This document shows positions 403-12,370 of a DNA stretch of 12,370 nt, in pieces (within the stretch, counting starts at the first letter, position 1; each line of letters opens with the position of its first letter). The notes under the pieces are model-generated. The model was not told the DNA's origin and did not search any database. It saw only the letters and a list, made by a program, of their open reading frames with translations. Made by a program: the position numbers and the translations under genes. The stretch is from Promethearchaeota archaeon. GTDB lineage: Archaea > Asgardarchaeota > Hermodarchaeia > Hermodarchaeales > Hermodarchaeaceae. The stretch covers positions 1 to 12,370 of the forward strand of contig JBHLMI010000045.1 in NCBI GenBank assembly GCA_048938295.1, in the 5' to 3' direction.

Positions 403-1641
403 GTGAAAGCTGGAAGTAAGTCACTAATTATCTATCGTGGATATAAGACGGAGTTGAAATTAAATAATCACCAGAGAAACCTTTGTAGAAGACACGCGGG
501 ATTTGCTAGGTTTGCTTATAATTGGGGTTTACAAAGGAAGATTGAGGAATATGAAAAAACTGGAAGCTCTCCCACTGCATTTACTTTGAGTAGGGAACTG
601 AACAGGCTTAAGCTTTCTGAATTTTCTTGGATGTATGAACTGTCAAGTCGTGTTCCCCAAGAAGCATTCAAAAATCTGGATTTCGCGTTCAACCAATTCT
701 TTCGTCGTATAAAAAAGGGTAAAAAACTAGGATTCCCAAAATTCAAAGCACGCAAATGTGGACTCGGATCCTTCCGGTTAAACGGAGTAATCCGTGTGTC
801 TGAAAATGTTATCCAATTGCCCCGACTTGGTAGGCTTCGGTTAAAAGAAAGAGGCTATTTACCCTCCGAGTCAAATCGGATACATATTCTTTCAGCAACC
901 GTCTCGGAGAAAGCAGGTCGTTGGTTTGTTTCCCTACAAGTTCGAGAAGAGATTTCTCCAGAACAAAGCAGTGGTCCAGTAGTTGGTGTTGATGTTGGGC
1001 TCCGCCATTTAGCAGTACTTTCTGATGGCACCTTCTTCGATAATCCAAAGGCATTGAGTCAGAAGGAACGGAAATTGAAGCAGGTACAAAGAAAGCTTGC
1101 AAAGAAGCTGCGTGGAAGTAATAATTATCAGAAGCTAAAACTCAAACTACAAAGAATCCATAAAAAAATTGCAAACATTCGAAAAGATGCTATTCACAAA
1201 ATAACAACCCGACTGGTGAAAACCAAATCAGTCATAGTTATTGAGGGACTTAATATTCGCGGACTAACGAAAAATCATTCAATAGCAAAGGCAGTTTCAG
1301 ATGCGAGTTTCCAAGAGTTTCGACGCCAACTCGAATATAAAACGGTCTGGTATGGATCTAATCTGATTATTGTGCCTTGGTCTTTTCCATCGTCAAAGCG
1401 ATGTTCCAAATGTGGAAAAATCAAGAAAGAGTTACCTCTATCTTCACGGATTTACGAATGCAAGTATTGTGGATTAACTATGGATCGTGATTTGAATGCT
1501 AGTAAAAACCTAGCATTAGTCGCCGCCAGTTGGTCGGAGACAATAAACGCTTGTCTAGAGGTGGGAGGTTACAGATCCATTGGATCAGTGCCCATCAATG
1601 ATGCAAGAACCGAACACCAATCAAAAAACTTGAAAGGGTAA
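403..1641 (+). CDS. tnpB: RNA-guided endonuclease TnpB (IS607-like), 412 aa
   Basis: N-terminal YKTELKLNNHQR...HAGFARFAYNWGL, PKFK motif, RuvC-I VGVDVG, RuvC-II VIVIEGL, zinc finger CSKC...CKYC, RuvC-III DRDLNASKNL. All three acidic catalytic residues present, no frameshift. Confidence 0.95.
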   Translation: MKAGSKSLIIYRGYKTELKLNNHQRNLCRRHAGFARFAYNWGLQRKIEEYEKTGSSPTAFTLSRELNRLKLSEFSWMYELSSRVPQEAFKNLDFAFNQFFRRIKKGKKLGFPKFKARKCGLGSFRLNGVIRVSENVIQLPRLGRLRLKERGYLPSESNRIHILSATVSEKAGRWFVSLQVREEISPEQSSGPVVGVDVGLRHLAVLSDGTFFDNPKALSQKERKLKQVQRKLAKKLRGSNNYQKLKLKLQRIHKKIANIRKDAIHKITTRLVKTKSVIVIEGLNIRGLTKNHSIAKAVSDASFQEFRRQLEYKTVWYGSNLIIVPWSFPSSKRCSKCGKIKKELPLSSRIYECKYCGLTMDRDLNASKNLALVAASWSETINACLEVGGYRSIGSVPINDARTEHQSKNLKG

Positions 1642-1671
1642 GATTCGGGCAACGGTAGCAGAATCCTTTTA
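1495..1671 (+). ncRNA. Predicted TnpB omegaRNA/reRNA: scaffold to 1655 plus guide from 1656
   Basis: Established: TnpB guide RNAs derive from the element's right end plus 3' flank and overlap the end of tnpB. Seen stems: 1495-1502/1510-1517 (8 bp), 1574-1578/1582-1586, 1561-1565/1591-1595, 1610-1614/1644-1648. The 5' and 3' limits are approximate. Confidence 0.7.
1656..1668 (+). repeat. 13-bp direct repeat, right copy (TAGCAGAATCCTT)
   Basis: Starts at the first base after CAACGG and is identical to 357-369. Confidence 0.97.
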
Positions 1672-1674
1672 TAG
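1659..1674 (+). promoter_or_regulatory. Archaeal BRE + TATA promoter (CAGAATCC TTTTATAG) for the r-protein operon
   Basis: Purine-rich AGAA directly upstream of TTTTATAG, the only good TATA box before rpl22. Predicts a start near 1696-1697, coinciding with the 5' end of the leader stem. Confidence 0.65.
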
Positions 1675-1804: not shown

Positions 1805-2266
1805 ATGCCCAACTACGGCTATTCGATCATTGGTCTGGATCCCGATAAAACCGCCCGGGCTAGCGGACGCGAGGTTCACATGTCTCCCAAGGCTGCTCGA
1901 GAAATCTGTAATGAGCTACGGGGACTCCGCCTTGAAGCCGCCAAAACCTACTTGGAAGAGGTCATCGCCATGCGCCAGGCGGTGCCTTACCGTCGGCACG
2001 ACGGACAAGTGGGGCATCGCAAGGGACTGCGTAAGGCTGATTCTGGACGGTACCCTGTGAAAGCATCCAAAGAGATCCTGCGTGTGATAGCCAACGCCGA
2101 GAATAACGCCGATTACAAAGGCTTAGATCTGGATCGGCTGCGAGTCACGCATATCTCAGCGTATCCGGGTCGGGTCAATAAACGCTTCGTACAACGGGCG
2201 CGGGGACGGTCAACTAAGTATAATGAGCAATTAGTCCATGTTGAGGTCGTCTTAACGGAGGAATAA
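1805..2266 (+). CDS. rpl22: 50S ribosomal protein L22 (uL22), archaeal type
   Basis: SPKAAREIC...GL.LE.A..YLEEV....AVPYRRH...VGHRKG...GRYPVKA; RARGR motif. Confidence 0.97.
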   Translation: MPNYGYSIIGLDPDKTARASGREVHMSPKAAREICNELRGLRLEAAKTYLEEVIAMRQAVPYRRHDGQVGHRKGLRKADSGRYPVKASKEILRVIANAENNADYKGLDLDRLRVTHISAYPGRVNKRFVQRARGRSTKYNEQLVHVEVVLTEE

Positions 2267-2268
2267 TC

Positions 2269-3495
2269 ATGCCAGCTGAAGATCATTTCATTAATCGAGG
2301 ACTGTTGAAAGTTAAAGTGAACGATTTTCTTCGCCAGGAGCTTCGACGTGCGGGTTATGCTGGCGTAGACCTTCAGAAAACTCCGCTCGGGATGCGAGTC
2401 GTCGTCTATGCTGCACGTCCTGGAATGGTTATTGGTCGACGTGGGATAACGGTTCGGGAGCTCACAGAAACTCTTGAACACGATTTTGGTCTTGAAGCAC
2501 CGCAAATCGAAGTCAATGAGGTGGAGGTCCCCGAACTCAACGGACCCATAATGGCAGAACGGTTAGCCCAACGCCTTGAGCGGGGTGATCATTTCCGTCG
2601 TGCGGCCTACGGTGTTCTTCGTCGTATCATTCAGACAGGGGCAAAGGGTGTCGAAATCTCCCTCGCTGGCAAGCTTACCAGCCGTCGTGCCCGGTATCAG
2701 AAATTCCGCAGCGGCTTCGTGGCCAAGACTGGTGAACCGATACGAACTGCGGTGAGTCATGGGTGGGCTTATGCTGTAATGAAACCGGGAGTCTTAGGAG
2801 TTCAAGTCCGCATCATGCTACCGGATACTGTTGCTCCGGATCATCCTGTTATCGTCCATCGGGAAGTGGAAGTTCAAGCAGTTCCTCCTCCTATCCCCAA
2901 AGCCGCAGAAATCGAAATCATCGAAGAAGAACTCCCCTTAGAAGAAGCTCCCTCAATCGAAGAGTTTGTGGAAGAAGATATGGAACCGGCTCCTGAATCG
3001 GTCGAGCCAAAAACCCCTGTGACCCCTGAGGGCGAACCAACCTCTAAGGCCTCCCCTGAACCTGCTCCAGAAGCCCCACCCGCCGAAGAAAAACCTGCAC
3101 CCGAAAAACCAAAGCCTAAACTCAAGGAAGAACCCAAAGCTGAACCTCCCAAGAAAAAGGCACCTGAAACGCCCAAGGAAAAACCGAAGCCAAAGAAAGA
3201 AGTAGCCAAGGAGAAACCAAAGGCTAAGAAGGAAACGGCAAAGCCGAAACCTAAAGCCAAGCCCAAAACCGAACCGAAACCCAAGGCAAAGGCTAAGACT
3301 GAGCCTAAGAAGAAGGTGGAGGAGAAACCAAAGGCTAAGGCGAAGCCAAAGGCAGCTAAAGCTGAAGAAAAACCCAAGGCCAAAGTGGCAAAGAAGCCGA
3401 AGACGGAGAAACCTACTGAGAAGGAAAAGAAGACGAAACCCAAAGCGGCAAAGGAGAAGGCTTCGAAATCCAAGAAGGAGTCCTCAAAGAAGTGA
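2269..3495 (+). CDS. rps3: 30S ribosomal protein S3 (uS3) with ~210-aa low-complexity C-terminal extension
   Basis: KH domain ARPGMVIGRRG and C-domain HFRRAAY...GAKGVEI..AGKL...RAR within aa 1-~197, followed by acidic then Lys/Pro/Ala-rich tail. Confidence 0.97.
   Translation: MPAEDHFINRGLLKVKVNDFLRQELRRAGYAGVDLQKTPLGMRVVVYAARPGMVIGRRGITVRELTETLEHDFGLEAPQIEVNEVEVPELNGPIMAERLAQRLERGDHFRRAAYGVLRRIIQTGAKGVEISLAGKLTSRRARYQKFRSGFVAKTGEPIRTAVSHGWAYAVMKPGVLGVQVRIMLPDTVAPDHPVIVHREVEVQAVPPPIPKAAEIEIIEEELPLEEAPSIEEFVEEDMEPAPESVEPKTPVTPEGEPTSKASPEPAPEAPPAEEKPAPEKPKPKLKEEPKAEPPKKKAPETPKEKPKPKKEVAKEKPKAKKETAKPKPKAKPKTEPKPKAKAKTEPKKKVEEKPKAKAKPKAAKAEEKPKAKVAKKPKTEKPTEKEKKTKPKAAKEKASKSKKESSKK
3209..3339 (+). 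repeat. 20-nt exact in-frame direct repeat in the rps3 tail (AGGAGAAACCAAAGGCTAAG at 3209-3228 and 3320-3339)
   Basis: Read directly. Copies are 111 nt (37 codons) apart and both encode EKPKAK. Confidence 0.9.
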
Positions 3496-3515
3496 GATGA
3501 GGAGGTAAAGGGCAA

Positions 3516-3749
3516 ATGCCATTACTGAAAATGAATGAAATCCGGAATATGACTCCTGTTGAACGGGAACGGAAGCTCGATGAACTCCGGGCTGAACTGG
3601 CAAAACAACGGGCTGCAATGATGTCTGGTGCAGGAATGGAAAATCCCGGAGTCATCCGTGGAATTCGTAAAAACATCGCTCGGATTCTAACCGTGAATAC
3701 TGAAGAGGCACGGAGGATTGCTGAAGAAAGCTTGGAGGCGGGTGAGTAG
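3516..3749 (+). CDS. rpl29: 50S ribosomal protein L29 (uL29)
   Basis: LKMNEIRNMT..ER..KL.EL..EL...R...ENPG.IR.IRK.IARILT; SD GAGGAGGT at 3499-3506. Confidence 0.96.
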   Translation: MPLLKMNEIRNMTPVERERKLDELRAELAKQRAAMMSGAGMENPGVIRGIRKNIARILTVNTEEARRIAEESLEAGE

Positions 3750-3751
3750 CT

Positions 3752-4033
3752 ATGCAACACGCTAGCCATCTGGAACTCCACCCCCTCATTGGTCTCTTAG
3801 CCACTGTGAAGCAGGCGACCAACCCCATGCTCCGCAACATTTCCGGCGTCATTGTGGACGACACCCATAACATGCTTACACTCGCTGACGGACTTCGACA
3901 CCGTCAGATTCCGAAGACCTCTACAGTCTTCGAGCTGTCCCTGCCTAGTGGCGAGACAGCAGAAATTGACGGGACGGCTCTACTGGGCACTCCCGCAGAA
4001 CGCCTAAGGAGGGCGAAAAAACTACGATGGTAG
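3752..4033 (+). CDS. rnp1: Ribonuclease P protein component 1 (Rpp29/Pop4)
   Basis: H.LIGL....NP....ISG.IVDDT.NML...IPK...F...IDG..L.G.P.ERL pattern and conserved position between rpl29 and rps17. Confidence 0.88.
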   Translation: MQHASHLELHPLIGLLATVKQATNPMLRNISGVIVDDTHNMLTLADGLRHRQIPKTSTVFELSLPSGETAEIDGTALLGTPAERLRRAKKLRW

Positions 4034-4371
4034 CGAAAAATATCGGTCTGAAGGTCACGCCTCCCGAAGAGGAATGTAGCGATCCTAATTGTCCGTTTCA
4101 CGGTACACTACCAGTCCGTGGACGAACCATGGACGGTGTTGTGGCCAGCACCAGAATGCGCGGCACTGTTACTGTCCGCCGTGATTACTTCAAGTTCATC
4201 AAGAAATACCGTCGGTATGCACGGAGTCACTCTATGACCGCGGCCCATCATCCTCCCTGTATCCCGCTTGAAGTGGGAGACACCGTTCGAATTGCTGAGT
4301 GCCGACAAATTAGCAAAACGGTATCTTATGTCGTCGTTGAACGCATCAAATCCAAGGAGGCGACCGACTAA
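4027..4371 (+). CDS. rps17: 30S ribosomal protein S17 (uS17)
   Basis: NIGL.V.PP..EC.D.NCPFHG.L.VRG; GD.V.IAECR.ISKT. Confidence 0.97.
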   Translation: MVAKNIGLKVTPPEEECSDPNCPFHGTLPVRGRTMDGVVASTRMRGTVTVRRDYFKFIKKYRRYARSHSMTAAHHPPCIPLEVGDTVRIAECRQISKTVSYVVVERIKSKEATD

Positions 4372-4793
4372 TGGTGAAACGAGGTAAAAAGGCTGTAGGT
4401 GTTGCACGAACCAAGATTAGTCGTGGTCTACCCACAGGGGCTAGACTCACCGTTGCCGATAATAGTGGGGCCCGGATAGTCGAAATCATCTCTGTCATTG
4501 GCTGGCATGGACGACTCCGACGTCAACCGGCCGCCAGTGTGGCTGATATGGTTGTAGTCGCCTGCAAGGCTGGGACTCCCAAGATGCGTCGCCAAGTGCT
4601 CCGTGGTATCATTGTGCGACAACGCATGCCCTACCGCCGTAAAGGGGGTCAATGGATTCGCTTTGAAGATAATGCCGTCGTCATCACTTCAGAAGTAGGG
4701 GATCCACAAGGATCAGAAATCCGGGGTCCCATTGCCCGAGAAGCCGCGGAACGCTGGCCCCGTATTGCTAGTGTCGCCAGCATCATCGTTTAG
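4371..4793 (+). CDS. rpl14: 50S ribosomal protein L14 (uL14)
   Basis: ADNSGAR, FEDNAVVI, IRGPIAREAAERWPRIAS. TAATG overlap with rps17. Confidence 0.98.
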   Translation: MVKRGKKAVGVARTKISRGLPTGARLTVADNSGARIVEIISVIGWHGRLRRQPAASVADMVVVACKAGTPKMRRQVLRGIIVRQRMPYRRKGGQWIRFEDNAVVITSEVGDPQGSEIRGPIAREAAERWPRIASVASIIV

Positions 4794-4807
4794 GAGTTGA
4801 AAAGAAC

Positions 4808-5194
4808 ATGACCTCACGAAAACCCAAGAAACAGCGCAAATCGCGATATACCGCACCTTGGCATCGTCGCCACAGATATCTCACCGCTAAGCTGGCTCCT
4901 GATTTAGTGGATAAACACGGCATCAAACGACTGCCGGTCCACACTGGTGACACCGTCTATATCACTCGAGGGGCCTTCCGTGACTCCGAAGGCGATGTGA
5001 TTGAAATCGATATGAAAAAGCTCAAGCTCAGTATCGAGAACATCACAATCGAAAAAGTGGATGGCTCCGCTGAGCCTTTTCCGATACGTCCCGAAAACGT
5101 CATGATTACCAAACTGAAACTTGATAAAACCCGTCAAACGGCCATCGATCGTAAAGCTGCTGCCCGAGCCGGCTTGATAGAAAAGGAGGATTAG
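4808..5194 (+). CDS. rpl24: 50S ribosomal protein L24 (uL24)
   Basis: S.KP.KQRK..Y.AP.H.R; KOW motif LPV..GDTV.I.RG. Confidence 0.97.
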   Translation: MTSRKPKKQRKSRYTAPWHRRHRYLTAKLAPDLVDKHGIKRLPVHTGDTVYITRGAFRDSEGDVIEIDMKKLKLSIENITIEKVDGSAEPFPIRPENVMITKLKLDKTRQTAIDRKAAARAGLIEKED

Positions 5195-5198
5195 TAGT

Positions 5199-5939
5199 AT
5201 GCCCAAAGGTCCCAGAAAACATCTGAAACGATTGGCTGCCCCTGGTCACTGGCAAATTAAGCGCAAGGTTCGTCCCTTTACTATCCGCAGTAAGGCTGGT
5301 CCCCATGCTCTCCAAGAAGGAATACCATTAGGGGTTGTCCTCCGAGACATGCTCAAATTAACCACCACACTGAATGAAACACGGCGTGTCATTGCGCAAG
5401 GGCACGTGAAGGTAGACGGGCGCATACGCAAAGACTACAAATTCCCTGTTGGCTTAATGGATATCATCGAGGTGGACAAAGCCGAAACACTCGTACGCGT
5501 TGTACCTGACTCGCAACACCTCCTCCAACTTTTCAAAATCACCAAGAAAGAACAGAACCTCAAGCCATGTAAAATCACAGGTAAGAACACAGTGGCTAAA
5601 GGAAACATACAACTCCATCTTCATGATGGTCGCACCATCCAACTTCCTGTAAAAGACCCGAAGGTCAAGCCCCAAATCCCCTATAATCCCGGCGATACGC
5701 TGTTAATCAAGTTGCCTGATCAAAGCATTCAGGAACATATCCCCCTTAAGAAAGGAATCACGGTTGTCATCACCGGCGGAGATCATACGGGCAAATTAGG
5801 CAAACTCATCGAAATTGACCCTGAGAATCAACTGGGAACCATCCAGACCACAGAGGCCAAGACCATTTTGACCGCTATTCGATACGTCTTTCCTCTTGGT
5901 ATGGATTCTCCCTTGGTTTCTATTCCGGAGGCTGGCTAA
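5199..5939 (+). CDS. rps4e: 30S ribosomal protein S4e (eS4)
   Basis: GPRKHLKRLAAP, VKVDGRIRKDYKFPVGLMDII, QLHLHDGR. Confidence 0.97.
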   Translation: MPKGPRKHLKRLAAPGHWQIKRKVRPFTIRSKAGPHALQEGIPLGVVLRDMLKLTTTLNETRRVIAQGHVKVDGRIRKDYKFPVGLMDIIEVDKAETLVRVVPDSQHLLQLFKITKKEQNLKPCKITGKNTVAKGNIQLHLHDGRTIQLPVKDPKVKPQIPYNPGDTLLIKLPDQSIQEHIPLKKGITVVITGGDHTGKLGKLIEIDPENQLGTIQTTEAKTILTAIRYVFPLGMDSPLVSIPEAG

Positions 5940-5941
5940 CC

Positions 5942-6604
5942 ATGTCAACAGCAAAGAAATCCCCTCAACCGAAAACCTCACCCAAACAAACAGCCTCAGT
6001 GAAGGCTAATGATGCCGGGGCTAAGGCTAAGCCAGCAAAGCCCCTCCCGGCTCCCCAACCAAAGGCAAAGAAGGACAATGTCATGCGACACATCTTCATT
6101 TCAAAGGTAGTCGTAAATATGTCCTTGGGCACCGGGGGTGAACCCCTAGCAAAGGCTAAAACAGTTCTCGAAAATCTAACGGGGCAAAAACCAGCGGATA
6201 TCTTGGCCAAACGCACGAATCGCGACTTTGGACTCCGTCAAGGTGAACCCATGGGCTGTAAAGTGACCCTTCGTGGTGAGAAAGCCAAAGACTTTGCCAA
6301 ACGAGCTTTAGATGTCGCTGACTTCCAAATTCCGGAGAGTGCTATCGACCATTCGGGGAATGTGTCGTTCGGTATTGCTGAACACATTCAGATTCCAGGT
6401 GTCAAATACGATCCCAATCTTGGGATCTTTGGTATGGACGTTGCCATATGCACGGAACGTCCTGGATACCGAATCAATCGGCGACGCCGAGGACGCCATA
6501 GAGTTCCCCGTCGTCACCGGATTACGCCTAGTGAAGCGATGACAGTTCTTGCCACAGAGCTGGGAATCCAATTCACACGACCCGAAATGGAGGAGGAATA
6601 CTAA
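5942..6604 (+). CDS. rpl5: 50S ribosomal protein L5 (uL5) with ~44-aa Lys/Pro/Ala-rich N-terminal extension
   Basis: Core from NVMR..ISKVVVNM; GCKVTLRG; SFGI.EHI.IPGVKYDP..GIFGMDV. Confidence 0.97.
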   Translation: MSTAKKSPQPKTSPKQTASVKANDAGAKAKPAKPLPAPQPKAKKDNVMRHIFISKVVVNMSLGTGGEPLAKAKTVLENLTGQKPADILAKRTNRDFGLRQGEPMGCKVTLRGEKAKDFAKRALDVADFQIPESAIDHSGNVSFGIAEHIQIPGVKYDPNLGIFGMDVAICTERPGYRINRRRRGRHRVPRRHRITPSEAMTVLATELGIQFTRPEMEEEY

Positions 6605-6753
6605 TGTCGCAGGAGAAAAAGCAGGGCAAAGGACACCGCTCATGTAAACGATGCGGGACCCATCGTGCCATTATCCGCAGTTTTAAAATCAGCTTATGTC
6701 GGCGCTGCTTCCGAGAAGTCGCCGAGGAGCTTGGATTTCGTAAATTCAGTTAG
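6604..6753 (+). CDS. rps14: 30S ribosomal protein S14 (uS14), zinc-binding type, 49 aa; absent from the ORF track
   Basis: Hand translation: [49 protein letters not shown]. CxxC...CRRCFRE motif, TAATG overlap with rpl5, conserved position. Confidence 0.96.
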
Positions 6754-6767
6754 AGGTGGAAAAGACA

Positions 6768-7160
6768 ATGACCGTAAAGCAGCCATTGGCAGATGCTTTC
6801 TCAAGCATCATGAATCACGAGCTCCTTCGTAAATCAGAGGTACTCATCGCCCCTGCCTCGAAGAAAATCGGCGCTGCGCTCCGGATTATGCAGCGAATGG
6901 GCTATGTTGGCGAATTCGAATTTATCGACGATGGTAAGGCCGGTATGCTCCGAGTAGAGCTCCTTGGCCGTATAAATCAATGTGGTATTATTAGTCCCCA
7001 CCACGCGGTGAAACGCCACGACTTCGAAGAATGGGAGAAGCGGTTCCTGCCCTCTCGGGCATTCGGCTTCCTCATTGTGTCAACTCCCAAAGGCTTCATG
7101 ACACACCGTGAAGCCGCAGAACAAGGTCATGGAGGACGGCTCATCGCCTACGTCTACTAA
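6768..7160 (+). CDS. rps8: 30S ribosomal protein S8 (uS8)
   Basis: [33 protein letters not shown]...GG.LIAYVY. ATG 6768 preferred over GTG 6756 because GAGGTGG (6753-6759) then serves as SD and the length is 130 aa. Confidence 0.96.
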
Positions 7161-7175
7161 GCTAAGGAGCGGATT

Positions 7176-7745
7176 GTGACAATGCCAGCTAAAACTACGC
7201 ACTTCGAAAAATTAACTTCTATCTTGGAGAACACCACCGTAACCCTTGATGGAAAGCGTGTGATTGTGCAAGGACCTAAAGGAGAACTCACCCGTGACTT
7301 CAGCCACGTCGACGTAACTATTCAAAAGACCCGAAACAATATCATGGTCTCTGTCGAATATCCCCGGAGCCGACAAATCGCCCTTGTAGGCACCGTCATC
7401 TCCCATATCAGAAACATGATGCTTGGTGTCATCCACGGCGTCACATACAAGATGAAAGTGGTGTACGCCCATTTCCCTCCTAGCGTTAAAGTTGAAGGCG
7501 ATCGCCTTATCGTCGAGAACTTCTATGGCGAGAAAGCTCCCCGCCGTGCCAAAATTCTTCCTGGTGTCAACGTTAGCGTGCATGGTGACGACGTAGTTCT
7601 GGAAGGGATTGACATCGAGCTTGTTGGTCAGACAGCAGCGAATATTCAGAATTCAACTAAGCTCCGTCGGAAAGATCCACGCAAGTTCCAGGATGGGATA
7701 TACGTATACGAAAAACAACTTGGAGAACAGCATTGGAAGCTTTAA
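7176..7745 (+). CDS. rpl6: 50S ribosomal protein L6 (uL6)
   Basis: V.GPKGEL.RDF, YKMKVVYAHFP, ENF.GEK.PR, D.RKFQDGIY. Start could be GTG 7176 or ATG 7182. Confidence 0.96.
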   Translation: MTMPAKTTHFEKLTSILENTTVTLDGKRVIVQGPKGELTRDFSHVDVTIQKTRNNIMVSVEYPRSRQIALVGTVISHIRNMMLGVIHGVTYKMKVVYAHFPPSVKVEGDRLIVENFYGEKAPRRAKILPGVNVSVHGDDVVLEGIDIELVGQTAANIQNSTKLRRKDPRKFQDGIYVYEKQLGEQHWKL

Positions 7746-7766
7746 CCAACCCGGATGTGAAAGATA

Positions 7767-8213
7767 ATGAAAAAGAGTAAACGTGTCAAACAACTTCAAC
7801 GCGAACTATACAAGAAACGGCAGTTAAATCAACGAAAACCGAAGTTTCGGCGTCCGGAGAGTTGGCGGTATAAACGATTAAACGCTAGGTGGCGGCGTCC
7901 CAAGGGCATTGACACTGCCGTTCGGAAACGCGAAAAAAGCCAACCGAAAATGCCCCGCATCGGCTACCGAAGTCCGGTTAAGCTCAGGGACTACCATCCG
8001 TCTGGCATGAAAGAAGTACTCGTTCACAACCTCCAAGAAATGGAAGGGCTTCATCCTAAAATTCATGCTGTCCGAATTGCTCATCGTGTAGGTGATCGCA
8101 AACGAATGGCCATTATTGATCGAGCAGATGACCTTGGTCTTCGGGTAATCAATCCTCAACTCAAATCGGAGATACGCGATCTCCTCGACCTTGACACAGG
8201 GGAGACTAGCTAG
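7767..8213 (+). CDS. rpl32e: 50S ribosomal protein L32e (eL32)
   Basis: KPKFRRPESWRYKRL...WRRPKGID, P.IGY.SP...HPSG..EVLVHN. Confidence 0.97.
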   Translation: MKKSKRVKQLQRELYKKRQLNQRKPKFRRPESWRYKRLNARWRRPKGIDTAVRKREKSQPKMPRIGYRSPVKLRDYHPSGMKEVLVHNLQEMEGLHPKIHAVRIAHRVGDRKRMAIIDRADDLGLRVINPQLKSEIRDLLDLDTGETS

Positions 8214-8228
8214 AAGGTGAGTATAACC

Positions 8229-8678
8229 ATGAATGTTAGAGCCCAACGAAAACTTGCTGCGCGAATTCTTAAAGTCGGTGAAAATCGGGTCTGGATTGAT
8301 CCTGACCGGCTTGATGATGTATCGCTAGCCATTCGCCGCGATGATATCCGCCGGCTAATCCATGAAGGTGCTATCCGCAAGGTGCCAATTCAGGGTGTTA
8401 GCCGTGGTCGAGTAAAGGTTGTTCATCTAAAGCAGAAACGAGGCCTTCGTTCAGGGCCAGGCAGTCGCGAGGGCAAACGTACAGCGAAACTCTCAGGCAA
8501 AGAACGGTGGATGATTAGAATTCGGGCTATCCGCCGACATCTCAAACAGCTCCGAGCTCGCCGGGTCATTAAGCCCCGTGATTACCGACGCTTATACCGA
8601 CTTTCGAAAGGTGGGATGTTTCCCACTATTCGACGAGTCGACATGTATATCCAAGAAAACAAAATGAAGAGGCGATAA
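8229..8678 (+). CDS. rpl19e: 50S ribosomal protein L19e (eL19)
   Basis: QRKLAA.ILKVG.NRVWIDP, R.DIRRLI.EG.I, G.GSR.G, YR.LY...KGG.F. ATG 8229 preferred, with AAGGTGA (8214-8220) as SD. Confidence 0.96.
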   Translation: MNVRAQRKLAARILKVGENRVWIDPDRLDDVSLAIRRDDIRRLIHEGAIRKVPIQGVSRGRVKVVHLKQKRGLRSGPGSREGKRTAKLSGKERWMIRIRAIRRHLKQLRARRVIKPRDYRRLYRLSKGGMFPTIRRVDMYIQENKMKRR

Positions 8679-8681
8679 AAA

Positions 8682-9290
8682 ATGGCACACGGACCACGCT
8701 ACAAAGTACCCTTCCGTCGACGTCGTGAAAGCAAAACCGACTACCATGCACGACGCCGGATGGTAGGCTCGGGACGACCACGCCTAGTCGTACGGAAAAC
8801 CAGTACCCGCGTCATCGTCCAAATCATGGACGCCCTACCGGAAGGAGACAGATGCATCGCAGCGGCTGATTCGCGACAGTTAAGCGAATTTGGCTGGCGC
8901 GCTGGTGTAAAGAACATCCCTGCAGCGTATCTCACAGGATTCTTAGCTGCCAGCCGCGCTCTGAAACTAGGAACAAACACCGCCATTGTTGACATTGGAT
9001 TAACCCAACCAATACCTGGTTCCCGAATCTTTTCAGCTGTCAAGGGTGCCATCGACGCTGGGCTTGACGTTCCGTGCCCAGATAAGATGTATCCAAAGGA
9101 AAAACGTCTTCGAGGCGAACACATCGCTAGCTATGCCAAAGATCTCAGCGAGAACCAGTCCAAAACCTTTCAACGCCAATTCGGAATGGTGTCAAAGGGC
9201 CGAACCGATCTTACTCAGCTCCCAAGCATGTACGATACTACCAAGAAGAATATCACAGCGAAATACACTCGTGGAGGGTCGAAACAATGA
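8682..9290 (+). CDS. rpl18: 50S ribosomal protein L18 (uL18)
   Basis: [44 protein letters not shown]. Confidence 0.98.
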
Positions 9291-9955
9291 GCCGAAGGCC
9301 GCGACAACAACAGCAACGCCCACGCGGCTTCAATGTCGATGAGTGGGAACCGGTCACAAAAGTTGGCCGACAGGTGAAAGCTGGCGAAATAACCTCACTT
9401 GAAGATCTCTTTCAGTTAGCTCTCCCCATCAAGGAGCCAGAAATCATCGATGTGCTGCTGCCTGACCTTCAAGAAGAAGTCATCGACATCAATTTGGTTC
9501 AAAAACAGACAGATGCTGGTGAAAAATCTCGGTTCAAAGCCACCGTCATTGTAGGTAACGAAAACGGTTTTGTCGGCATTGGCGAATGCAAAGCGCCAGA
9601 AATTGGACCCGCCATTCGGAAAGCCATTCTTCGCGCGAAGCTCAACCTCATTTCAGTTCGCCGAGGATGTGGAAGCTGGGAATGCGGGTGCAACGATCCC
9701 CACTCCGTTCCCTTTCAAGTGAATGGCAAAACAGGAAGCGTTCGCGTGAAGCTTCTTCCTGCGCCTAAAGGCGTCGGGCTAGTTACAGCTGACACAATGA
9801 AAGTTGTCCTTAGGCTAGCTGGCATCAACGATGTATGGTCCCGAACACGTGGTCATACCCGTACGACCCTCAACTTCGCGAAGTCAGTCTTCCGTGCATT
9901 AAAAGAAACCAATCAAATCATGACCCCGCAAGATTGGACTCGGAGAGCTGAATAA
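9287..9955 (+). CDS. rps5: 30S ribosomal protein S5 (uS5)
   Basis: [50 protein letters not shown] overlap with rpl18. Confidence 0.98.
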
Positions 9956-9956
9956 C

Positions 9957-10451
9957 ATGTCAACAGAAACCCAACAAAATCATCCATTGGTGGTTGTCAT
10001 CCGCATTCGCAGCAGTATTGGCTTGCGCCAAGAAGTCAAAGAAACACTAGCCCTGTTGAGCCTTTCCCGTGTGAATCACGCCGTGGTTCTGGATAAGCGC
10101 CCAACCTATCTAGGGATGTTTCAACGGGCAAAAGATGCCATCACCTGGGGTGAACTTGACGCCCCCACTTTATCGCACCTTCTTCGAAAACGAGGTCGGC
10201 TGATTGGAGAAAAACCTGTTACCGATGAATATGTAGCAAAGCACACCAAATACAAATCCATTGATGAATACGCTAATGCTCTCGTCGCGCAGAAAGAGGA
10301 ATCACTGGCTCTTCCTAAGCTGAAGAAAGTCTTCCGTCTACACCCACCTTCGAAGGGATTTCGAGGAAGTGTGAAACGAACCCTTCAACAGAAGGGTGAA
10401 CTCGGGTATCGCGGTGAGGATATTAATGCCCTCCTCAAACGAATGTCATAA
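9957..10451 (+). CDS. rpl30: 50S ribosomal protein L30 (uL30), archaeal long form
   Basis: VIRIR, TL.LL.L.RVNH.V, ITWGE, FRLHPP.KGF, GELGYRG..IN.LL.RM. Confidence 0.97.
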   Translation: MSTETQQNHPLVVVIRIRSSIGLRQEVKETLALLSLSRVNHAVVLDKRPTYLGMFQRAKDAITWGELDAPTLSHLLRKRGRLIGEKPVTDEYVAKHTKYKSIDEYANALVAQKEESLALPKLKKVFRLHPPSKGFRGSVKRTLQQKGELGYRGEDINALLKRMS

Positions 10452-10483
10452 GAGGGAGAATATGAAAACAGGATGGATGAAAT

Positions 10484-11023
10484 ATGGCTGAAAACGATGA
10501 TCGCCGTAAACGGAAGCGCTGGTGGGATGATGAGTCCACCGATTCACAGTTCGAAGCCCTTCAACGGATGTTTGAAGAAATCATGAAAATGATTTCTGAC
10601 ATTAATCCTGAGGACATGTTTGGTCCCGACGCCGAACACCAACTTGAAGAAATCCTCGAACAGCTCCAAAAGAATCCTATGGTATGGGGCTTCTCTGCAG
10701 GAATCGGACCAGATGGTAAGATACGCTTAAACCCATTTGGTAACCTTAACCCCGAGGGTGGACCACCCGTTGTCCGCGATGAACGTGAACCACTCATTGA
10801 TGTCATGGACCAAGATGACCAGCTCATTATCATTGCAGAACTCCCAGGCGTGAAACGGAATGAAATCAACATCAAAGTGAACGATTATAGTCTAACGCTC
10901 CAGGTGGATTCAAAGGACCGAAAATATGCAAAAGACATTGATCTTCCTGCACCTGTTGATATCGACTCCGTCAAGACCAGTTATCGTAATGGCATCTTAG
11001 AAATCCATCTCAAGAAACGTTAA
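10484..11023 (+). CDS. hsp20: Small heat-shock protein, archaeal Hsp20 family
   Basis: P.VWGFS..IGPDGK....FGN, then alpha-crystallin domain REPLIDV......IIAELPGV....I...LP..VD....K..Y.NGILEI.L.K. Confidence 0.93.
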   Translation: MAENDDRRKRKRWWDDESTDSQFEALQRMFEEIMKMISDINPEDMFGPDAEHQLEEILEQLQKNPMVWGFSAGIGPDGKIRLNPFGNLNPEGGPPVVRDEREPLIDVMDQDDQLIIIAELPGVKRNEINIKVNDYSLTLQVDSKDRKYAKDIDLPAPVDIDSVKTSYRNGILEIHLKKR

Positions 11024-11044
11024 CCTCATAGGAGAGACACAATC

Positions 11045-11725
11045 ATGTCAACACGAAAACCTAAAAAAGTCCGTAAAATGCGTGGGAGCCGGATGCACGG
11101 TTATGGACGAATAGGTCAGCATCGCAAAGCTGGCCAACGCGGTGGCAAAGGCAAAACCGGTGGAAAGAAACACGATTGGACCTATGTAACTGCACATGAC
11201 CCAGACCGCTTCGGCAAACATGGCTTCCAACGTTATACCAAACTCCGTCAAGATCACACCACCATTAATGTGGGCGAGATTGCTCGTAGCCTTCCTCGAT
11301 TCACCGAAGGAAAACCTGCAGCTAAAGGTGAACCCATTTCTATTGATCTGACCACACACGGTTACGATAAAGTGCTTGGAGCCGGATCAATAACGGTTCC
11401 CGTAGCCGTTACTGCTCCAATTTTCACTCACCGAGCAGCCGAGAAAATTAAAGCCGCTGGAGGGAAAATCAAAGGTTCTGTTCAAGAACCCACGAAGCAT
11501 CCTGCCCCTTCTTTAACTCAACCCCCTAAACCTGCACCAAAGCCGACGCCCAAGGCAAAAGTGGAACCGAAAACTAAGCCAAAGAAAGCAGCGAAACCAA
11601 AGAAAATAGCCAAATCGAAGAAGGCAACTAAGTCAAAAACTACGACCAAGTCCACACCGAAGGCCGCTTCCACTAAGGCAAAACCCAAACGAGCGGTAGT
11701 TACAAAAGGAAAAGCGAAGACCTGA
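11045..11725 (+). CDS. rpl15: 50S ribosomal protein L15 (uL15) with ~83-aa Lys-rich C-terminal extension
   Basis: RKMRGSR.HG.G..GQHR..G.RGG.G..G..KH, FGK.GF, GYDKVLGAG, A.EKI..AGG. Tail is aa 144-226. Confidence 0.97.
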   Translation: MSTRKPKKVRKMRGSRMHGYGRIGQHRKAGQRGGKGKTGGKKHDWTYVTAHDPDRFGKHGFQRYTKLRQDHTTINVGEIARSLPRFTEGKPAAKGEPISIDLTTHGYDKVLGAGSITVPVAVTAPIFTHRAAEKIKAAGGKIKGSVQEPTKHPAPSLTQPPKPAPKPTPKAKVEPKTKPKKAAKPKKIAKSKKATKSKTTTKSTPKAASTKAKPKRAVVTKGKAKT

Positions 11726-11727
11726 AC

Positions 11728-11745
11728 CAAAACATAATTAAATAG
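11728..11745 (+). promoter_or_regulatory. Putative internal BRE/TATA promoter for secY (CAAAAC ATAATTAAATAG)
   Basis: TTAAATA at 11738-11744 preceded by an A-rich tract, in the longest intergenic gap of the operon (87 nt). Confidence 0.45.
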
Positions 11746-11812
11746 CAAAACCTTCCGCTGTTCATCTTCGATACGAATTATTTGTAAAAACAATGCTTTT
11801 GGGGCAAACGGC

Positions 11813-12370
11813 ATGAGTCGGTTTCTCAACGCACTGCGTCCATTGGTTCGCATCATGCCAGAGATCAAGGCACCTGACCGGAAGGTCTCGTTCCGCGAAA
11901 AAATCATCTGGACCGCGGTCATCCTCATCTTATACCTCATAATGGCCAGCTTGCCCCTCTATGGCATCAACCAACAATTAGGATTTGACTACTTTTTCTG
12001 GCTTCGCACCATCCTTGCCTCTTCGCGAGGTACTCTCATGGAACTTGGCATCGGTCCCATCGTGACCGCTGGCCTCATCATGCAGCTCCTCGTGGGCTCC
12101 CAACTTATCCGCGTTGACATGTCGGACCCCTATCAGCGGTCGCTCTATACCGGGGCCCAAAAAGTCCTTGCTGTCTTCATGACTGCATTCCAAGCCTTCG
12201 CTTACATCTTCGCCGGTGCTTACGGACAGATCCCTGCGCAACTGCCCATTGGCAGCGCTGTCTTGGTTTTCATCCAATTGATGTTTGCTGGCGTTGTGGT
12301 CATCATGATGGACGAAACCATCCAGAAAGGTTGGGGCCTCGGCAGTGGGGTCAGCCTCTTCATCATGGCC
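11813..12370 (+). CDS. secY: Preprotein translocase subunit SecY (Sec61-alpha type), 3'-truncated by the window edge; absent from the ORF track
   Basis: Hand translation: MSRFLNALRPLVRIMPEIKAPDRKVSFREKIIWT...ASSRGTLMELGIGPIVTAGLIMQLL...DE.IQKGWGLGSGVSLFIMA, 186 codons without a stop. Confidence 0.97.
   Translation, partial: MSRFLNALRPLVRIMPEIKAPDRKVSFREKIIWTAVILILYLIMASLPLYGINQQLGFDYFFWLRTILASSRGTLMELGIGPIVTAGLIMQLLVGSQLIRVDMSDPYQRSLYTGAQKVLAVFMTAFQAFAYIFAGAYGQIPAQLPIGSAVLVFIQLMFAGVVVIMMDETIQKGWGLGSGVSLFIMA

Follow-up and report, generated by a model that had tools for sequence, protein, structure and literature searches.

A tnpB-only IS200/IS605-family element in the promoter region of an Asgard ribosomal-protein operon is flanked by a duplicate of its own guide target

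Cas12 nucleases descend from TnpB, which is itself a compact genome editor. In IS200/IS605 elements generally the guide is whatever sequence follows the right end of the element, and retention of the element is a known role of this RNA-guided nuclease. In the ISDra2 element of Deinococcus radiodurans, the closest characterised system, the TAM is TTGAT, the omegaRNA overlaps both the right end and the 3' end of tnpB, and the flank supplies the guide. The ISDra2 guide is 16 nt long (PMC10097598), with a seed at positions 1-12 and tolerance of mismatches at positions 13-16 (PMC13639567). The IS200/IS605 family, including the IS1341 group, is described as making no target-site duplication, and TnpB-derived promoter repressors (TldR), whose RNA guides are complementary to promoter core regions, have been reported (PMC13565253). 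Functional and displaced copies of a host sequence are left by tRNA-targeting integrative elements and by homing-endonuclease genes with a replacement gene end.

The window analysed here is a stretch of 12,370 nt, comprising a whole contig (12.4 kb) of a 2.5-Mb MAG (91.6% complete) of Candidatus Hermodarchaeum (Asgard), for which MAGs of Candidatus Hermodarchaeota / Ca. Hermodarchaeum yapensis are the closest public relatives. It carries a tnpB-only (IS1341-type) element of the IS200/IS605 family, inserted within the promoter region of a ribosomal-protein operon that extends from rpl22 to secY; all window features described below lie on the forward strand. This is a known kind of element, TnpB/omegaRNA, in an unusual state, sitting in an essential Asgard promoter and flanked by a duplicate of its own guide target. 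An IS1341-type element lodged in this promoter region, kept there by TnpB-mediated retention and bordered by a scar-like repeat, is the best explanation of the whole and can be advanced with good confidence.

The sole ORF of the element, tnpB (403-1641), is intact and encodes a 412-aa ISDra2-like RNA-guided nuclease with the Pfam domains OrfB_IS605 (PF01385), Cas12f1-like_TNB (PF07282) and HTH_OrfB_IS605 (PF12323), which aligns over its full length with the ISDra2 TnpB structures PDB 8h1j/8exa (E ~1e-66). The RuvC residues D, E and D align with D191, E278 and D361 of ISDra2 and both CxxC pairs of the zinc finger are present, so that the protein is presumably an active nuclease; a TldR-type dead-nuclease repressor was ruled out by the intact catalytic residues. 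The element further differs from TldR systems in that its guide matches the adjacent flank and no TAM occurs at the promoter copy beside its right end. It shares with the IS1341 group the single tnpB, the lack of a transposase and of terminal inverted repeats (none join 357-402 to 1620-1655), and the occurrence of diverged copies and solo omegaRNA mini-elements in the genus. Unlike ISDra2, neither the element nor the 91.6%-complete genome yielded a tnpA gene for the Y1 transposase in a PF01797 search, and no left-end hairpin was found in 345-430 (z = +0.65). The 12 full-length copies compared have no left-end consensus. In the window the short left end (370-402) holds the TATA-like box of tnpB itself, TTTTTATG (372-379), located ~23 nt 5' of the GTG start codon, from which a leaderless tnpB mRNA is predicted. 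Five further diverged copies or fragments of the element are present in the genome and dozens in the genus, with at most 72% nucleotide identity to one another.

The earlier note had taken the 19 nt following the right end for the core promoter of the ribosomal-protein operon, and comparison with relatives confirms this assignment at the level of sequence. Positions 1656-1674 read TAGCAGAATCCTTTTATAG, comprising CAGAATCC (1659-1666) and TTTTATAG (1667-1674, with TTTT at 1667-1670). In nine element-free genomes of the same genus a Trm112-like gene is followed by rpl22 with nothing inserted between them. The target is kept in all nine, and the block AGCAGAAT..TT.TATAG, containing the BRE and TATA box, is invariant among these genomes and the window; the sequence before TAGCAG varies. 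The ~21 nt 3' of the TATA block likewise vary, and invariance returns at a C/T-G corresponding to window positions 1695/1696, at a distance of 25-26 nt when measured from the TATA centre. In archaeal genes a purine transcription start site is expected ~25 nt from the TATA box, with the BRE placed directly 5' of this 8-bp element. As judged from the invariance in ten genomes and the spacing, the BRE (CAGAATC, 1659-1665), the TATA box (TTTTATAG, 1667-1674), the spacer and a predicted start site at ~1696 have the canonical archaeal layout; among 28-nt non-ORF stretches drawn at random from the genome, 3.6% contain a strict TATA-like motif. The 5' leader predicted from this start site (1696-1804) extends for ~109 nt to the rpl22 ATG at 1805. 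It contains blocks that are invariant in ten Hermodarchaeum genomes and is conserved above the level of coding DNA, and is a candidate ribosomal-protein autoregulatory leader. Its predicted fold is no better than those of shuffled sequences. The Trm112-like zinc-ribbon gene (1-342; weak Pfam Trm112p match), truncated by the start of the contig so that its 3' part is present, natively precedes the operon, with the same gene order in the nine relatives.

The omegaRNA scaffold (~1519-1655) overlaps the 3' end of tnpB and the right end of the element and finishes with ...CAACGG. In an alignment of 25 distinct copies, compensatory changes are present at 17 of the 32 pairs of the scaffold consensus structure, the stems of which are reproduced by a single-sequence fold, and many solo pieces of ~137 nt matching window positions 1519-1655 are found in the genus. 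The right end ...GGTAAGTTTCGG(A/G)CAACGG, where similarity stops, is common to six copies of this genome and to ~25 distinct copies across the genus; this shared end followed by unrelated sequence delimits the scaffold at ~1519-1655 and shows that the guide boundary previously placed at 1655/1656 is correct. An Rfam scan of positions 1-2400 returned no omegaRNA or leader match, and the window contains no tRNA genes. Assuming the 16-nt length of the ISDra2 guide, the predicted guide is TAGCAGAATCCTTTTA (1656-1671), the first 13 nt of which form the right copy of the repeat described below; no further target of this 16-mer within one mismatch was found in the genome. The suggestion that the TTTT at 1667-1670 ends the omegaRNA as an oligo-U terminator fails as a family feature, with oligo-T following the right end in three of 25 copies, against 9% expected, and could still apply to the window's own copy alone.

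The first 13 bases of the guide, TAGCAGAATCCTT, form an exact direct repeat at 357-369 and 1656-1668, and these are the only two occurrences on either strand of the 2.5-Mb genome. Both copies have native sequence on their outer sides. The left copy (357-369), which includes the BRE, continues the upstream flank, and the right copy continues the promoter. The left copy is preceded by CAGAT (352-356), which empty-site comparison identifies as native sequence 5' of the target and as a candidate TAM; the equivalent positions in relatives are mostly CAGAC/GAGAC. Guide position 10 is a C in both repeat copies and a T in all nine relatives, and this lineage-specific base indicates that the duplication used the sequence of its own lineage. 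The earlier description of the element as sitting just upstream of an intact promoter needs one correction: the promoter is whole, but the element was inserted inside the promoter region, and the BRE, TATA box, spacer and start site are contiguous and native because the 13-nt guide start was duplicated at the left junction. In carrying this 13-nt target duplication the window element departs from the family description and from ISDra2, which makes none. At the left junction ..AATCCTT is joined to GGGCTTTTTATG, and likeness to the left ends of the closest relative (L028) and of its orthologue in genome G001 starts only at CTTGG, so that the window left end apparently lacks the first ~9 nt of its relatives' left ends, with CTT common at the join. 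The apparent absence of these ~9 nt, the shared CTT and the lack of a hairpin make end joining or the repair of a break a more likely origin of this junction than the action of a transposase. The left repeat copy also matches the start of the L028 left end at 10 of 14 positions with one gap, a borderline chance resemblance that was set aside.

Empty sites were located for four other loci, and three insertions, at L003, L002 and L027, are clean. At the intact paralogue L003 (G000:C33) in the same genome, for which genome G001 has the empty site, the junction is ambiguous by no more than 3-4 nt and shows the expected absence of a target-site duplication. Between its right end and the conserved TATA box of rpl22e, the gene for ribosomal protein L22e, lie 4 nt, and its guide, AGACTTTTTAAGGGGC, covers this TATA box. 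No repeat is present at the pseudogene copy L002, where ~11 nt of native sequence have been replaced, or at L027 (G006:C30) of Ca. Hermodarchaeum yapensis, a 275-nt mini-element with an omegaRNA scaffold and no tnpB. The latter is inserted 7 nt upstream of the window junction in the same promoter, between the stop codon of the Trm112-like gene and CACAGAC-TAGCAG, and, as a member of another subfamily, represents a separate insertion event. This mini-element has its own TATA box, CCTATAAAAGG.

Repeats of the guide start are present at two further loci. The closest relative of the window element, L028 (G011:C49), is flanked by TTATTCA(C/T)AA, the first 10 nt of its guide, of which genomes empty at this site have one copy. 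The same site is filled in G011 (L028) and in G001 (L030/L079, contig C14), with flanks that are only ~70% identical, and is empty in G005 and G006, whose flanks are 92% identical to those of G011, which implies either that the insertion is ancient and was precisely lost more than once, or that this one site was hit repeatedly. At L034 (G009:C37), which encodes an intact 403-aa TnpB, the flanking repeat comprises ~90 nt of tRNA-Leu(UAG), beginning in the anticodon loop and continuing to the 3' end. The left copy completes a functional tRNA-Leu(UAG); the right copy is contiguous with native downstream DNA, has a 6-nt deletion and is decaying. The site is empty in four genomes, each with a single tRNA. 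This tRNA-Leu(UAG) has a T-loop intron and was missed by ARAGORN, and the ~90-nt duplication applies to both L034 and L043 (G003:C43). The left repeat copies of L028 and L034 carry seed mismatches. A scan of all 25 flanks for prefix repeats gave no cases beyond the window, L028 and L034. The guide-prefix direct repeats, of 10, 13 and ~90 nt at three of ~20 insertion loci in a family described as having none, are thus real and recurrent, always correspond to the start of the guide, and represent a minority state.

These three lengths do not fit a fixed staggered cut, nor do they agree with TnpB cleavage, which is known to occur at a distance of 15-21 nt from the TAM. Aberrant cleavage by TnpA that carries along flanking sequence does not account for all three. 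Formation of the repeat through a Campbell-type crossover of a circle, or through cDNA insertion, was considered and could not be established. Selection surely filters the outcomes, with insertions in a promoter or tRNA gene persisting only where function is restored. Together with the window, the other two cases in the genus point to a route of insertion or repair that has not been described. A wider proposal, that the TnpB-only elements of Hermodarchaeum can enter, or be fixed at, conserved functional DNA, such as a ribosomal-protein core promoter or a tRNA gene, by TnpA-independent break repair that duplicates the guide-matching target, restoring the host function and leaving a TAM-adjacent partial target by the tnpB promoter, is tentative and regarded as possible but doubtful. 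If it is true, the direct repeats would mark insertion triggered by an RNA-guided nuclease, or selection for restoration of the target. The elements also resemble the tRNA-targeting elements and homing-endonuclease genes, most clearly at L034; they carry neither an integrase nor a homing endonuclease guided by protein, however, the sole gene codes for an RNA-guided nuclease and the guide is the displaced copy.

Recognition of the target by the window TnpB appears to have diverged from that of its relatives. The target is preceded by CAGAT at the window element and by ...GGG or ...AGG at five other loci with known junctions. At the TAM-contact positions of ISDra2, H, K-C and T are present in every paralogue where the window TnpB has S63, S82-R83 and N127, and alignment with ISDra2 itself gives the differences Y52A, K76S, F77R and T123L. 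The TAM of the window TnpB probably differs from both that of its relatives and TTGAT, and the TAM of a paralogue cannot be borrowed for it since these residues are unlike those of all paralogues. The promoters of all nine relatives have two to three mismatches to the 16-nt guide, with one to two of these within positions 1-12, and would therefore be poor targets. The left repeat copy in the window, with its native 5' flank, matches the guide at 13 of 16 positions and by the ISDra2 rules may remain open to cleavage. Its tolerance does not follow from the simple model; the T in place of C beside the target, or binding without cutting, are possible reasons.

In the proposed mechanism, tnpB would be transcribed from its own TATA box (372-379) as a leaderless mRNA, and the omegaRNA would consist of the scaffold followed by ~16 nt of flanking sequence. 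Promoter copies that lack the element, in which a TAM, probably ...GA[C/T], is followed by TAGCAGAATCC..., would be recognised and cut by the RNP, while the element's own right junction would be protected because ...AACGG fills the TAM position. Repair of the cut element-free copies from an element-bearing copy would then be favoured. The guide would be the promoter by virtue of the landing site and of tolerance, and promoter seeking would not be required. Insertions in such a narrow intergenic space would persist only with a working promoter, a function that the duplication would secure here.

The earlier note had read the choice of target as a homing-like strategy, and an adaptive version of this reading would hold that the TnpB lineage has been selected for essential, slowly evolving targets, such as ribosomal-protein core promoters and tRNA genes, so that mutation offers empty alleles no escape, with the duplication as part of the strategy. 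Integrases that restore their tRNA target would be a parallel for such a duplication. The part of the claim that concerns the target stands, in that it is conserved, slowly evolving and invariant in relatives. The target genes of some copies also agree with it: two of the three intact copies in the genome, the window element and L003, adjoin ribosomal-protein promoters (the third, on C57, does not), with the L003 guide covering the rpl22e TATA box, L002 precedes a thermosome gene, the L034 guide is the anticodon loop of a tRNA-Leu gene restored by the ~90-nt duplication, and in G006 a second element lies 7 nt away in the same promoter. TATA-like motifs within 28 nt of the right end show a moderate, 3-4 fold enrichment: a loose definition gives eight of 25 copies, compared with 8% for non-ORF positions picked at random, and a strict one four of 25, compared with 3.6%. 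In these counts only ~6 sites are independent, and related genomes do not amount to independent samples. The survey of related copies proposed in the earlier note thus gives some support to a preference for essential promoters, through L003, L002, L034 and the G006 mini-element. Most copies, however, around two thirds, adjoin ordinary genes or nothing obvious, including those located before enoyl-CoA hydratase, NAD(P)HX repair, creatininase, DinB, NIF3 and DUF354 genes. Ongoing homing is a further part for which evidence is lacking, since no Y1 TnpA was found in the genome and no TnpB sibling that might share the guide, with above 71% aa identity, was present among 301 genomes of the phylum; the copies are also old, as their low mutual identity indicates. 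As the guide is the right-end flank in any IS200/IS605 element, adaptive targeting is an extra claim. The enrichment of TATA-like flanks is what would be expected if insertions are tolerated directly 5' of genes, as can arise from purifying selection on tolerated sites, with an additional bias possible and an adaptive strategy not established. Two independent insertions within 7 nt at one promoter, together with the two of three intact copies at ribosomal-protein promoters, hint at something beyond passive tolerance. Selection for essential targets is regarded as possible but doubtful.

Regulatory use of the repeat is less probable still. The left copy, CAGAT+TAGCAGAATCCTTGGG, would in this case be an uncut or poorly cut putative site through which TnpB-omegaRNA represses its own promoter, and the RNP might also modulate the ribosomal-protein promoter in a TldR-like manner. 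The position of 352-369 directly before the tnpB TATA box (372-379), with the left copy ending 2 nt upstream of it, is consistent with this, as are the 13/16 match, which covers the ISDra2 seed and not the distal positions (PMC13639567), the precedent of the TnpB-derived TldR repressors (PMC13565253), and the seed mismatches in the left copies of L028 and L034, as would be expected if full self-targets are selected against. Set against these points, the intact RuvC triad is not that of a TldR, the right junction lacks a TAM and the real promoter would not be bound in cis, most copies have no repeat, and the repeat may be a mere repair scar. The promoter assignment itself could also be mistaken, in that the operon might be transcribed by read-through from tnpB or from a start nearer rpl22, with the block at 1659-1674 serving some other function. 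The ~109-nt leader, which is long for an archaeal mRNA, would agree with this, but the invariant block has the sequence of a BRE and TATA box at the canonical spacing from the start of leader conservation, and no second TATA-like motif is present between 1700 and 1804. Since the nine relatives keep the block with no element upstream, tnpB read-through cannot explain its conservation, and a start elsewhere is thus very improbable.

The base-level junctions and the empty sites of sister species place an intact TnpB element in an essential Asgard promoter that is nevertheless unbroken, and reveal that in part of the family the very sequence recognised by the guide is duplicated. Should the repeats be footprints of nuclease-triggered insertion or repair, they would point to a route of mobility or retention unlike the TnpA 'peel and paste' mechanism, and should they be rare repair scars kept by selection, the locus would still be a clean case of a tolerated insertion in essential regulatory DNA.

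Downstream of the promoter, the ribosomal-protein operon (1805-12370) extends from rpl22 to secY, the latter being cut by the contig end, and its 19-20 co-directional genes agree with the earlier prediction of a transcript of at least 18 genes. The predicted operon comprises, in order, rpl22, rps3, rpl29, RNase P p29, rps17, rpl14, rpl24, rps4e, rpl5, a small ORF, rps8, rpl6, rpl32e, rpl19e, rpl18, rps5, rpl30, an HSP20-domain gene, rpl15 and secY. The HSP20/alpha-crystallin-domain gene (10484-11023) is localised within the operon with rpl30 and rpl15 as its neighbours. Ribosomal protein S3 (2269-3495) is 408 aa in length, with a long Lys/Glu-rich C-terminal extension past the KH and S3_C domains.
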